From Malacoraja senta (Eukaryota), in assembly GCA_038087875.1 (NCBI GenBank), contig CM075991.1, positions 12,278,001 through 12,342,000 of the forward strand: a stretch of DNA of 64,000 nt, read 5' to 3'. Below the pieces are notes generated by a model. That model searched no databases, was not told the DNA's origin, and saw only the letters and a list, made by a program, of their open reading frames with translations. Shown here one piece after another: positions 5,416 to 64,000 of the stretch; positions within the stretch are counted from its first letter, which is position 1; each line of letters starts with the position of its first letter. Made by a program: the position numbers and the translations under genes.

Positions 5416-6165
5416 AGACTTCTTCAGACTGGAAAAGGGTCTCAACCTGAAACGTCATCTATTCCTTCTCTCCAGAGATGCTGCCTGTCCCGTTGAGTTA
5501 CTCCACCATTTTGTGTCTACTCCCTCTGAAGATTACACTATCACCCCAGAGGAATTTTTCAGCCTCCCTGTTCTCCACCTGTGAATGTTTAGAGACTGTG
5601 ATTGACCGTCTTAAAATGTTTTATGCATCAGTGGTTATAGACAGTATTTATTAGCATCATTGCACCAGCCAATGAGTTGTAGTAAGGATGGGATATTCCA
5701 CATGAATAGTCTCACAGCAAACAGTCTCTTGTATTGCATGCAAATTTGACCTACCCAGAAAAAATAGAAGAAACAGAATGCAGCAACTTCTCCCAATAAA
5801 AGCAGGGAAATGTCTCCAGTTGAGGAGAGTGACCCTACAAATTACATGCTTAAAAGTCACTGCCAGCAGTGCTTAGTTAAAAGAGAAATTACCTAATCAT
5901 TTCCAGTATGGCTGGGAATATCACTTAAAGATATAGAGCCATCTTAAAACTCACTCCATTACCCATTCCAATGCAGGACAGTGGTAACAAATAATTGTTT
6001 CTTTTAAATGCAAACAAAAACAGTTAGTACTGGAAATGATTAGGTATTTTCTCTATTAAAGTCTAAGATCTTTGGGAATGTCTAAGCTATCACTTGGGAA
6101 TGCCATGTATCTGCTCTAGAGCAGCGTTGTACTCTCCGGTGTCCGCAGGCTGACAGGGACAGTGC

Positions 6166-6300
6166 TTATGACTGGAAGCCGGGCAGTTGCAGGAACCTGG
6201 ACATTCTATGCAGCGAGGATTTGGAGGTGTCTGGTTCACTGCTTCGCCTGTGAGGGCCGTCTTGCTGTTTCCTTTTCCGCGCAAGCTCTTCCTCCAGGAC
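6166..6300 (-). CDS. SLK: SLK-like kinase last coding exon ([11 protein letters not shown]...LPGFQS*)
   Basis: Acceptor tgtgcag|GTC, phase 0, stop at 6166-6168; resembles the SLK/LOK C-terminal LEEE motif. Confidence 0.85.
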   Translation of the reverse strand, partial: VLEEELARKRKQQDGPHRRSSEPDTSKSSLHRMSRFLQLPGFQS

Positions 6301-9300
6301 CTGCACAGACAGAACAACCACAGTCAGCTTCAGTGAAGGACAAGAACTGATCAATGGTGTCATTCAGCTCCTCAAGCCTGTTCTGATAGTCAGTGACATT
6401 TTAACCAAACTGTAACCTACATATGGACGGAGTTCGTGTACATAAACCATAGCCCATCAAGTCTACTCCACCATTCAATCATGGCTGATCTATCTCTTCC
6501 TCTTAACCCCATTCTCCTGTCTTCTCCCATAACCCTTGACACCCGTACTTATCAAGAATCTATCCATCTCTGCCTTAAAAATATCCTTTGACGGCCTCCA
6601 CAGCATCTGTGGCAAAGAATTCCACAGATTCACCACCCTCTGACTAACGAAATTCCTCCTCATCTCCTAAAAGTGATGATTTAAAGAGGGAATCTTAGAT
6701 TGTCATTCCATTTGAACAAAGACCTCTTGGGCCATCGTTAGATCAAGAATGAGACTTTTCATAAAATAGCATTATTCGACAACGGTTGAGACTAAGACAT
6801 ATAAACAAAAGAAAAATTGTACTCAATATTGAATACTGACTGCCTACCCTTTTTGTAAACTAATTATCTGCAGTCCCTTGTTTCTCTATTGAATTCTACA
6901 ACTTCAGGAACTTAATTTCTCAATCTGCATCAGACATCCATTGCATTAATTGTTTGATGTGAGAATGATGAACCAAAGAATGGCTTTTTGCAGATTCTTT
7001 GGCGTGAATCTTATGGAAGTTTGGAGTGGGATCCAGCAGCAATCTCCAACCCAAAAGCTATATCCTTCCTTTCAACATTTACCTCTTTGCGAGACGTAAG
7101 ACGGTCCTTCCATTCCTTCAGCTCCATTGTGTGTTCCTCATCAAGTGCCGTTAGTTTTTCTTTCTCACAATCCACCAGAAGATGCAACTTCTCATTCTGG
7201 TAAGAGATAAAATAGTATAGTATCTCAACATTTATCTGGTTCACTTAGAACTTTAATTTAAATGTGGTTAATTTTTCTGAAAAGTTAGGAATCAGTAGTT
7301 TATACTTCTATCCTTCTTGACCATGGGTTAGATCCTAATGCCACTGAGCTCCCGAAATCCATATGTCAACAGTGTCAACAATTTGGGGAATATGGTAACT
7401 TTTAATTTGCAATTCAAGTATTGAAACACAAAAGCTCTCCAAAAGATGCAGTCACCAATAATTTGTCACTGCCAAGACTAGTAACTATCCTTCAAGCAAC
7501 AATATCTGTCTTGAAACAGTGCAGTCCTGGCAGTGAAGCTATTTTCACAATGCTTTTAGATAAGGATTTCAAGAATGTTGATACAGTGACAATGAAAGAA
7601 CTTCAAAATACTATTCAGAAAATTAAAATCATGAAAGGCTTTGATAGAGTAGGTACAGAGATTCCTTCCACATTTGGAGAAGTGTCTAACTTGAAGCCAA
7701 AAATATAAAAGTCTTCAGGAAATTAAAAAGGGAGTTCAGAAGAAACTGCCCTAGCCAAAGAGCGATGAGCAAGTGGAACTTTCTCCCAGAGGAACTGGTT
7801 GAGGTGATTAGTATAGACACCCTTCATGGGAGTCTGGACAAGGAAAAGGAGATAAGCTAGAGAGCTGTACTGATGAATTCACATGAATGGAAAATGGGGC
7901 GAGGTTCAAGTGCATCATAAATACCAATATACTTTGGTTGGAGTGAATGGCCTATGTGCCTTCTATCTTATGTAAAGCTGTGTAGAATTGTGTACAGGAG
8001 GGTGTTCCTAGTCTGACAGATTCTTTATCCATTTGCTTTTCTCAGTCACACTTTGCCTCCCTCCCCTTCTTATTCCACACCACATCTGCTTCAGTCTCTA
8101 TCTGACTGAAGTGCAGGACCTGGAAGAGAAGTAGATGTGAAGATGCTGCAAGCATCTGGCCAGAACTAGACTGGAGGTGTAGATAATTCAGCAAGGTGGT
8201 GAGCTACCTGGAGCTGCTGTAGTTCTATACAGTTGTTCTCACACTGCTTCAGCCGATCCTTGACATGAGCTTCATGTATTTGCTGCTGGTCCTGCTTCTC
8301 TGCTTTCTGTCGAGCTTCTTCCTGAGCCATGAACTGGAGAGAAATCACCACCATTAACTAACAATGCTTTTAGTTCAGCGACATCAGCAAGGAATCAACA
8401 TCTTATCAACATACTCTCCAACTGTAGATTTCATGTTCATAAGTTATAGGAGCATAATTAGGCCATTCGACCCATCAAGTCTACTCTGCCATTCAATCAT
8501 GGCTGATCAATCCTTCTCTCCCAACCATATTCTCCTGCCTTCTCCCCATAACCCCTGATCATGACATTTGTATTCACATTATAAGGCATATGAGTGCAAA
8601 GTGGACTGAATAACCTGTTTGATGAGCTCTCTTTGCTCCACGGAGCCAATTGCTCGGTTCTTCAGGCTCTGTTTGAACATATTCAGTCTGATCTTGGCTT
8701 CGTTGCGTTGCATTTTTGGCAGTCGAGCCCGCTCCTGTGCTTGCTGGCTCTTCAAATCTTCCATGAGGCAGTGGTGATCGTGGGACATTCTCTCCTTGTC
8801 CTGTGAAAAGGATGGAGAAAACAGCTTATTGCACAGAGAAATCTAACATTATGGAAATTAAGAAAAGCTTGATAATAGAACATAGAACAGTACAGCACAG
8901 CAACAGGCCCTTCGGCCCACAATGTTTGTGCTGAACACGATGCCAAATTAAACAGATCTCATCTGCCTGTACAAGATCCATATTCCTCTATTCCCTTCAC
9001 TCCCATGTGCCTATTTAAAAGCCTCTTAAACACCACTATCGTGTCTGCCTCCACCACCATCCCTGGCAGCGCATTCCATGCCCACACTACTCTCTGTGTA
9101 AAAAAACATGCCCCACACATTCTCCATTAAACCTCAGGCCCCCTCACCTTATTACTATGTCCTCTAGACTTGAACATCTCCACCCTGGGAAAAAGATTCT
9201 GTCAGTCTACCCCAGCTATGCCTCTCATAATTTTCTACACTTTTATCAAGTCACCACTGAACCTCCGACAACCATCACTTCATTTTGATGTCTTCAACCC

Positions 9301-62537: not shown

Positions 62538-62755
62538 CACAGTGGCGCAGCGCGTTCTCCCTGTGACCGTGTGGGTTGTCTCCGGGTGCTCCAGTTCCCT
62601 CCCACATCCCAAAGACGTGCACAGTTTGTGGATTCATTAGCTTCTGTAAATTGTCCTGAGTGTGTAGGGTAGAACCAGCATTTGGGTGATCATTGGTCAG
62701 CGTGGACTTGGTGGGCTGAAGGACCCGTTTCCACACTGTATCTCTAAACTAAACA
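62538..62755 (+). mobile_element. Internally deleted V-SINE copy
   Basis: cacagtggcgcagcg joined to gttctccctgtgaccg...ctgtatctctaaactaaac. Confidence 0.75.
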
Positions 62756-62937
62756 CAGTGCGATGTTGATCTTTTGCGGAGTTAAACCAGGGCAGGATCA
62801 CAGTGAATGATATTGTCCTGGGGAGTGTTGTAGAGCAGATTGGTCGAGGAAAACAAGTACATAGTTCTCTCAAAGTGACGTTCCAGATGAAGAAGGCTCT
62901 TGCGACATTGTCTTCATCAGTCAGGGTAGTGAATATA

Positions 62938-64000
62938 GAAGATAGACACAAAAAGCTGGAGTAACTCAGCGGGACAGGCAGCATCTCTGGAGAGAAGGAA
63001 TGGGTGACTTTTCGGGTCGAGACCCTTCTTCAGACTGAAAGTCACAGAAAAGGGAAACGAGAGATATAGACGCTGATGTAGAGATATAGAACAAATGAAT
63101 GAAAGATATGCAAAAAAAGTATCAATGACAAAGGGAACAGGTCATTGTTAACTGTTGTACCAGACATTTGTGAGGCTGCATTTGGAACACTATGTTCAGT
63201 TTTGGTGCAGGGAAAAATGCTATGAAGCTGGAGCGAGGGCAGAAAAGATTTGTGAGGATGTTGCCAATACCGGAGGGCCTGAGCTATGGGGAGAGGTGGA
63301 GGTGAGGGGTGATCTTATAGAGGTATATAAAATCATGAGGGGAATAGATAGGGTGAAGGCACTGGGTCTCTTTCTCAAGGGAGGGAGGGGTGAATCAAGA
63401 ACTAGAGGCATTGGTTAAAGTGAGAGGGGAAATATTTAATAGGAATCTGAGGGGCAGCCTTTCCAAGGTGGTGATTCCAGCCTCTTTGTGCTTTGCCTGA
63501 GGAGTAGTTCCTAGAGTGATCACTAGATAGCGATCACAAGCAGCACATCTGTCCAAGGCTAGCTCCCTATAAGACAAGTGGACTCACAGAGATATATAAC
63601 AAAACAAAGTAACGTTTTACTCAGAAGATAGATGCAAAATGCTGGAGTAACTTAGCGAGACAGGCGGCATCTCTGGGGAGGAGGAATGGGTGACGATTCG
63701 GGTCGAGACCCTTCTTCAGACTGAAAGTTACAGAAAAGGGAAACGAGAGATATAGTCGGCGATGTAGAGATATAGAACAAATGAATGAAAGATATGCAAA
63801 AAAAGTATTAATGATAAAGGGAAAAGGTGAGAACGAAAGTTGATGTGATTTGGGTGGGGGAAGAATTGCCAGAGAGAGGGAATGCAGGGGTTACTTGAAG
63901 TTAGCGAAATCAATATTCAATATATGGCTTGTAAGCTGCCCAAGCGAATGTAGAAACAAGGAACTGCAGATACTGAAAAAATAGACACAAAGTGCTGGAA
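62938..64000. mobile_element. Cluster of two minus-strand Penelope pLTR copies (about 62938-63150 and 63625-63950) flanking a plus-strand CR1 fragment (63155-63460)
   Basis: Near-identical gggtcgagacccttcttcagactgaaag..agaaaagggaaacgagagatatag blocks; the CR1 piece translates as VRLHLEHYVQFW and [17 protein letters not shown]. Confidence 0.75.

Follow-up and report, generated by a model that had tools for sequence, protein, structure and literature searches.

A hammerhead-bearing repeat and its host window

We analysed a stretch of 64,000 nucleotides from the skate Malacoraja senta (contig CM075991.1, positions 12,278,001 to 12,342,000), referred to here as the window. It holds an SLK/STK10-like kinase gene, FAM136A-like exons, a G-protein-coupled receptor (GPCR) gene and, on both strands, a dispersed repeat of about 100 nt that contains a minimal hammerhead ribozyme and comes from the pseudo-long terminal repeat (pseudo-LTR) of a Penelope-like element (Table 1). 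A profile of the unit, built from window copies and run at a cut-off of E<0.01, found 47 copies in the window and none in the reversed window, which served as control. Complete hammerheads are covered by 28 units, in agreement with the 25-30 copies counted from the letters alone in the original prediction, and every one of the 23 positions given there falls inside a profile-detected unit. CUGANGA, GAAA, U16.1 and H17, the marks of a minimal type I hammerhead, are present in young elements and in 13 of the 28 full window copies, where all core bases are intact; stem II is intact too in 10 of them, and five window copies retain core, H17, stem II and the CG palindrome together. The extra A9.1, the G10.1-C11.1 pair and the ACGU in place of helix III were all seen, and the class named at the outset, a minimal type I hammerhead with palindromic helix III, was borne out. 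Stem I is indeed short (normally 2 bp), but the GGGU/ACCC example offered at 17188 has to be withdrawn, as it uses flanking host DNA. Rfam covariance models returned no hammerhead family among 23 window matches at E up to 10; their miRNA-precursor matches are inverted pairs of the repeat and score below the gathering score. Introns of all three genes contain copies, as had been claimed, with 22 of the 47 units intronic (15 SLK-like, 2 FAM136A, 5 GPCR).

The copy at 10919 ties the repeat to its parent. It belongs to an insertion bordered by a 12-nt target duplication, TAATATTTTAGC, at 10260-10271 and 11012-11023, and is 97.5% identical over 750 nt to an intact natural element (L217) that encodes reverse transcriptase (RT) and a GIY-YIG endonuclease, which upholds the proposed Penelope-like pseudo-LTR origin. 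The GIY-YIG open reading frame (ORF) does lie 5′ of the motif, its stop being 118 nt before C3. This frame is 98-100% identical in all 150 genome matches scored, out of 102,281 candidates, and its linker cysteines C43, C48 and C51 are invariant in 24 relatives. The cut is predicted between 10946 and 10947, and the segment that follows is likely, by analogy with the anole element described below (PMC11167929), to be the region of RT recognition and initiation. The GIY-YIG fragment of the older copy on the minus strand at 51261 shares 73% DNA identity with the 10271 copy.

Table 1. Features of the window, with the basis of each assignment where given (UTR, untranslated region).
Feature	Position	Strand	Basis or remark
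5′-truncated Neptune-type insertion: ORF end, pyrimidine-rich 3′ UTR, hammerhead, ~65 nt beyond; without tail	10272..11011	+	
C-terminal 176 codons: CX4CXXC linker and GIY-YIG endonuclease	10271..10801	+	PF01541 E 1.5e-4, just under cut-off
Minimal type I hammerhead	10917..10948	+	sequence; cross-family covariation
Stem I GU/AC	10917-18, 10947-48	+	sequence
CUGAAGA box, then A9.1 and stem II GGGU-UUCG-GCCC	10919-25	+	
GAAA box, then palindrome ACGU and U17	10939-42	+	
Downstream pseudo-LTR segment	10949..11011	+	ends at first 3′ end (GTGTACC)
All 47 units, outer limits	693..63729	both	profile search
Solo ~100-nt copy beginning just before C3, core intact	33499..33598	+	profile search; 12-nt target duplication
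Solo copy of older subfamily, core intact	56356..56457	+	profile search
Older subfamily: GIY-YIG fragment, then ~300 nt on intact hammerhead unit with tail	51261..51978	-	
Older subfamily: GIY-YIG fragment and hammerhead unit	48349..48897	+	G12 -> A
Head-to-head pair, single insertion, tail on left arm	56033..56200		14-nt target duplication
Head-to-head pair, tail on right arm	37232..37410		13-nt target duplication
Inverted pair, SLK-like intron 1	32243..32383		minus arm: fully intact core in gene's sense
Inverted pair, FAM136A intron 2	39814..39955		
Inverted pair, decayed	36164..36345		
Inverted pair adjoining GIY-YIG fragment	47119..47347		
Inverted pair cut off 3′ of hammerhead	57255..57366		core absent
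Inverted pair cut off 3′ of hammerhead	57880..57992		core absent
Inverted pair, GPCR intron	60319..60464		
SLK/STK10-like kinase gene	33989 to 6169	-	19 aligned segments
FAM136A-like exons	near 41600, 40600, 39600		
Rhodopsin-family GPCR, two coding parts	58584-62312	+	intron 59073-61664

Parent element and descent of the hammerhead

In the natural full units listed (~4.0 kb), a single ORF of ~1,240 codons encodes RT (DKG and YIDD motifs), a CX4CXXC linker and GIY-YIG; a hammerhead lies in each flanking repeat, the tandem period is 3,997 nt, and in intact units the hammerhead stands 118 nt past the stop and ~160 nt ahead of the next ATG. The single ORF with RT and, at its C-terminus, a GIY-YIG domain, the pseudo-LTR tandems, the inverted 5′ copy and the one-sided tail are those of an endonuclease-bearing Penelope-like element. 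The linker between RT and endonuclease, CNRKRCNTC, fits the CX2-5CXXC pattern of Neptune; as this pattern is common to Neptune and Nematis (Craig et al., 2021, PMC8557442), we use 'Neptune-type' as a name given by motif. A hammerhead unit follows within 420 nt of the GIY-YIG end in 11 of 14 fragments from the genome sample described below, older subfamilies have the same unit with different 3′ UTRs, and most subfamilies show a pyrimidine tract and CAG ahead of C3. At L063:4700-6200 we observed a long Pro/Thr-rich, internally repetitive N-terminal extension, hence an ORF of ~1,240 codons vs ~900 in many relatives. As for an intron retained at the pseudo-LTR, acceptor-like and donor-like sites do occur there. 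A ribozyme activated by splicing, from a donor-like site at the ATG to an acceptor that lies 1 nt ahead of the core, was considered and not supported: there is no shared upstream exon, no GT..AG joint was seen among the joints listed (from contigs only, a weak negative), a spliced AG would not extend stem I, and the ORF is already open without splicing.

The repeat is as abundant in this chondrichthyan as had been supposed. One exact 31-mer has 38,669 matches in the 1.94-Gb genome, and its reversed pattern none. We sampled large contigs at round coordinates, sixty stretches of 10 kb in all, with small unplaced contigs left out. This sample contains 285 units (control 0), amounting to 22,739 bp or 3.8% of the 600 kb, and a strict descriptor of the minimal hammerhead matches it at 35 places (control 0). 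Extrapolated to the genome, these counts correspond to ~920,000 fragments, 113,000 intact cores (Poisson range 79,000-158,000) and some 180,000 short-hairpin loci, the hammerhead-bearing repeat making up ~4% of the genome. On contig C1 there is also a tandem array (L284, G000:C1:3869500-3879400) with units of 2-2.4 kb, at least ~20 of them over 160 kb, each with the same solo hammerhead copy and its target duplication; we rejected it as a retrozyme, since it is a segmental repeat that holds one solo copy.

Among the genomic copies no stem pair is retained beyond independence. Positions 10.1 and 11.1 are paired in 156 of 198 copies, with 155.0 expected, so the pairing of stem II that was said to persist across variants does not exceed chance here. 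Non-CpG core columns are 0.93 identical vs 0.91 in the downstream flank (109 rows), G12, which lies within a CpG, is kept in 70% of copies and lost in 30%, the third stem I pair is A-C in 96 of 141, and core, stem II and CG palindrome are all retained in 20 of 147 complete copies. The original prediction had listed a lack of stem II covariation and a core conserved no better than its flank among the findings that would count against it, and both are what the genomic copies present. These copies decay neutrally after insertion, which explains the lack of covariation among them and means that the covariation test belongs between families.

For that comparison, we gathered relatives at 33-54% protein identity from 80 metagenome loci; 34 of these loci extended to near the C-terminus, and three of the 34 were dropped for short flanks. 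The motif is present in 14 of these 31 distant relatives, in 12 of them 94-118 nt past the ORF (118 nt in the window), while minus-strand, ORF-interior and reversed controls gave 0 each. Only the 27-31-nt core can be aligned with the window, and the flanks are unalignable. In an alignment of 16 motifs (3 from the window and 13 distant, five with longer loops being excluded), 12 columns are invariant and 93% of the stem cells are paired, vs 72% when shuffled and at most 47% when slid. Double-sided changes occur at all three stem I pairs and at two stem II pairs; 98% of stem II cells are paired, the stem having G10.1-C11.1 and an additional base standing after A9. The 15.2/16.2 palindrome is ACGU in young elements and most relatives and CCGG in two. 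Taken together, the position of the motif, its covariation and the unalignable flanks argue that it is a real, selected minimal hammerhead by descent. Upstream of related ORFs, at L191:244 and L192:1511, we observed a variant whose helix III palindrome is the 4-nt CCGG and whose stem I has 4 bp.

Stem I measures 3-6 bp in the invertebrate relatives; the 2-bp skate form has a predicted pairing probability of 0.0. The predicted penalty for the hammerhead fold is 3-19 kcal/mol in skate copies vs 0.1-7.4 in five distant relatives, and the ACGU self-duplex is worth only -1.7 kcal/mol. In the youngest subfamily, fold prediction assigns stem II a probability of 0.00, with GUUUCG paired to CGAAAC and the GAAA box trapped, and pairs the tail end with UGAAGAAG. 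At L063:4453-4582 (fold z-score -2.2), the core's GAAGAAGG finds its complement in the tail end, CCUUCUUU, and AGAUGCUG is able to pair with either of two CAGCAU repeats. Judged by these models, the skate motif is predicted to cleave poorly alone, and tail pairing may act as an off-switch in the 5′ repeat.

Poor folding raises the question of whether the ribozyme of the skate lineage is catalytically dead, its sequence being retained to serve as a promoter, a splice acceptor or a signal for protein binding. The 2-bp stem I and the trapped GAAA box would agree with this, and so would a downstream flank conserved equally with the core and the pyrimidine tract and CAG before C3, although the D. 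virilis motif also has a 2-bp helix I (PMC4209133) and the absence of a GT..AG joint into the acceptor speaks, weakly, against splicing. The anole element inserts in vitro without cleavage, yet its motif does cleave, if only with protein (PMC11167929). Since ORF-linked subfamilies at 53-99% protein identity retain the core, A9.1, the palindrome and H17, we regard a dead ribozyme as doubtful.

Anatomy of the insertions and their 5′ junctions

Neighbouring units in the 285-unit sample form 55 head-to-head pairs, 0 tail-to-tail and 3 direct, which is not the head-to-tail tandem, with a hammerhead in each unit, that defines non-LTR retrozymes. The window has nine inverted pairs, two with clear target duplications; the pair at 56033 folds as a single long hairpin (-159 kcal/mol), and the minus-arm core of that at 32243 is predicted to be sequestered by the other arm, with a penalty of 18.9 kcal/mol. 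A 35-nt tail is found on one arm in 38 of the 55 pairs, on neither in 15 and on both in 2, where 26, 21 and 8 were expected (p=0.0006). A 3′ anchor with 32,511 matches served to select young copies: from the first 100 in the list, which lie within 5.6 Mb of a single contig, ~20 array copies were set aside and 80 were examined. Their 3′ ends are bimodal, with clusters of 53 and 26, and 27 have target duplications of 7-21 nt. Truncation at the 5′ side, an inverted 5′ copy and a tail at one end match the architecture known for these elements (PMC8557442, PMC3846280); head-to-head pairs, two 3′ ends and the one-sided tail are already-known Penelope features.

The 5′ ends of the young copies pile up at the ribozyme. 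In 37 of the 80 the first base lies no more than 8 nt from C3, and a further 16 begin between +9 and +19, mostly as fold-back junctions on the GTTTCG/CGAAAC palindrome; only 8 begin in the next 390 nt upstream and 11 extend beyond 400 nt. The junction rate near C3 is thus 0.044 per nt vs 0.0014 upstream and 0.0034 downstream, an excess of ~30-fold. Similar starts are seen by eye in 37 of 81 non-array rows of a second listing of copies, 62 of 108 sampled solos have at most 5 nt of upstream homology (a count that missing references for old subfamilies can inflate), and contigs of other organisms have loose ends at the same boundaries. As to the cause, run-off at an RNA start near TCAGT seems to us quite possible, if short of probable, and a stall at the folded domain is a tentative candidate. 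TCAGTC, we assume, fits the initiator consensus. An initiator-like TCACT has been noted in a rotifer pseudo-LTR (PMC3846280). We rejected TCAGT as a conserved initiator, for it is absent in the invertebrate relatives, where the 5′ flank follows stem I.

The same pile-up, the putative initiator and the identical boundaries in contigs of other organisms would also be expected if the ~100-135-nt units were a self-propagating, non-autonomous family, similar to short interspersed elements or retrozymes, with an internal promoter, the ribozyme and the RT signal, transcribed independently and recopied by the Neptune protein. The ratio of 285 short units to 14 GIY-YIG ends in the same 600 kb, and the derivation of vertebrate retrozymes from pseudo-LTRs in a preprint (10.64898/2026.07.22.740005), point the same way. 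However, ORF-linked copies show the stem II and flank variants of the solos, and the short copies have no 5′ flank in common (agreement 0.36-0.55 at loose ends). With direct tandems so rare (3 among 285 matches) and the single array examined being the segmental repeat on contig C1, we think such a family unlikely.

Starts at the predicted cleavage site were counted in one subfamily, where the patterns for +28 (N1.1), +29, +27 and +31 gave 153, 58, 78 and 22 matches, ~42 of the 78 at +27 being, by eye, one-base deletions. Of 30 loci inspected in the +28 class, 5 represent internal deletions, the tail is present in 18 of the remaining 25 (vs 26/80 overall) and many are arms of pairs, while G stands at the junction in ~76 of 100 listed rows (by eye) vs about half expected. 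The G excess and the internal deletions mean that the +28 peak is confounded by microhomology, and the rows listed for a second subfamily show no peak at the cleavage site by eye. We think it improbable that a strong-stop-like cDNA of 100-135 nt is the main product of copying and that, in addition, the 1-2% of young copies which start exactly at N1.1 are the earliest trace left in a genome by a Penelope hammerhead cleaving in vivo. By eye, about 36 of the 100 rows listed for the second subfamily belong to a composite repeat (L342, L344, L367) that holds the unit's 3′ half in rearranged form and lacks the 5′ core box, so that a rearranged half-unit has spread inside another repeat.

Regarding the rest of the window, the SLK-like gene has an acidic exon of ~610 codons at 17464-19296; a probe exon of this gene shares 95% identity with a thorny skate protein and 71-81% with those of other rays and sharks, and its nearest homologues were named, in this search, only in cartilaginous fishes. 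The GPCR is presumably prolactin-releasing-peptide-receptor-like. Two fragments of long interspersed elements were also observed, a 775-codon RT frame at 974-3301 (+; PF00078 E 1.7e-31), which we take to be CR1-like, and broken RT frames at 43107-44877 (+; PF00078 E 3.7e-17), which we take to be L2-like. A ~75-nt tandem repeat at 53862-54434 is visible as a repeated peptide in open frames.

A proposed mechanism and its relation to known elements

The repeats are very probably 5′-truncated and fold-back stubs of a young Neptune-type retroelement whose pseudo-LTR hammerhead likely cuts only weakly, as a dimer or with protein, and whose copies decay as passengers. Intact ~4.0-kb units encode the RT and GIY-YIG protein, with the hammerhead between the stop and the next ATG. 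By analogy with the anole element (PMC11167929), this protein would nick DNA and start copying the RNA from two internal sites, ~93 and ~128 nt downstream of C3, which would account for the pair of 3′ ends and for a 35-nt tail that is optional. The usual template was uncut or religated RNA, because most copies contain an uncut hammerhead. Copying mostly halts at the 5′ edge of the ribozyme or folds back on the GTTTCG/CGAAAC palindrome, which yields solos of ~100-135 nt and head-to-head pairs with target duplications; the halt would most likely be run-off at the RNA start near TCAGT, or a stall at the fold of the tail end with UGAAGAAG. Inserted copies then mutate regardless of the ribozyme. 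Several points weigh against this account. The 5′ junctions are spread over ~16 nt, unlike what a single start site predicts; no motif was found in 17 of the 31 distant relatives under the descriptor used; the 16 covariation sequences represent only about five lineages; the folding energies ignore dimers, tertiary contacts and protein; and the linker motif by which the element is classed is common to Neptune and Nematis. That intronic copies are working ribozymes, as the original prediction implied, or co-opted regulators of host genes is most improbable: nearly half of the window units are intronic, intact cores number ~1e5 by extrapolation and inverted pairs form hairpins near -150 kcal/mol, but SLK-like introns hold both orientations without strand bias (8 antisense, 7 sense, a small sample), core, stem II and CG palindrome have all survived in only 20 of 147 complete copies, solos lack a tandem partner, and the copies decay neutrally and are predicted to misfold.

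The motif is no new kind of ribozyme. The minimal class has been known since 2014, when it was reported from fish elements of the Neptune, Poseidon and Xena types, with no cleavage as a monomer and low cleavage as a dimer (Cervera and De la Pena, PMC4209133). The skate motif resembles those metazoan hammerheads in its type I core without a true helix III, the palindromic 15.2/16.2, the extra base after A9 and G10.1-C11.1, as well as in its pseudo-LTR location and its mainly single, dispersed copies, some of them nearby on opposite strands; it differs in its 4-bp stem II and 2-bp stem I (PMC4209133). The ~1e5 intact cores extrapolated for the skate and its 38,669 exact matches compare with ~4,000 copies in coelacanth and ~9,000 in Xenopus, obtained with another descriptor, and one supplement file of that paper contains no shark or skate term (PMC4209133).

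Closest in organisation is PAc, the anole Poseidon element of Frangieh et al. (2024, PMC11167929). Its ribozyme is inactive without protein and dispensable for insertion in vitro, there are no RNA reads at the ribozyme cut site, and two internal RT start sites were demonstrated. The skate element is alike in its single RT and GIY-YIG ORF, its tandem units, uncut RNA as the putative main template, and two 3′ ends ~35 nt apart that give the tail, with the hammerhead upstream of both. It differs in its CX4CXXC linker of Neptune/Nematis type, as read from sequence alone, and in that the hammerhead and both 3′ ends precede the ATG, whereas in PAc they lie inside the ORF (PMC11167929). Within the Neptune clade (Craig et al., 2021, PMC8557442; Arkhipova et al., 2013, PMC3846280) it shares 5′ truncation, partial tandems, the inverted copy at the 5′ end, junction palindromes and a 30-40-nt tail at one end only, but most skate insertions are only 100-200 nt long and their 5′ junctions are piled at the front edge of the ribozyme. 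Vertebrate non-LTR retrozymes also have type I hammerheads related to pseudo-LTRs, including those in the one chondrichthyan sampled, yet they are tandem, carry a hammerhead per unit and avoid introns, unlike the solo or head-to-head skate copies, which are common in introns (10.64898/2026.07.22.740005). The arrangement is thus one already described; apart from the very high copy number and the 5′ pile-up, nothing about it stands out. In the literature searched, which left most subscription papers and Repbase outside its scope, we found neither this skate family, nor its ~1e5 intact cores, nor the pile-up.

What the hammerhead does for Penelope-like elements is a pertinent question, considering that the sole element tested in vitro inserts without cleavage (PMC11167929). 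Because the present family is young, includes intact copies and has left near-identical stubs by the tens of thousands, it allows RNA start, RT start and the use of cut RNA to be tested by junction statistics. The inverted-pair hairpins could, in addition, feed double-stranded-RNA pathways. On the improbable combined reading given above, in which reverse transcription starts inside the 5′ repeat and runs off the RNA at the ribozyme, the skate genome would hold a million-copy record of a Penelope-like element copying itself.

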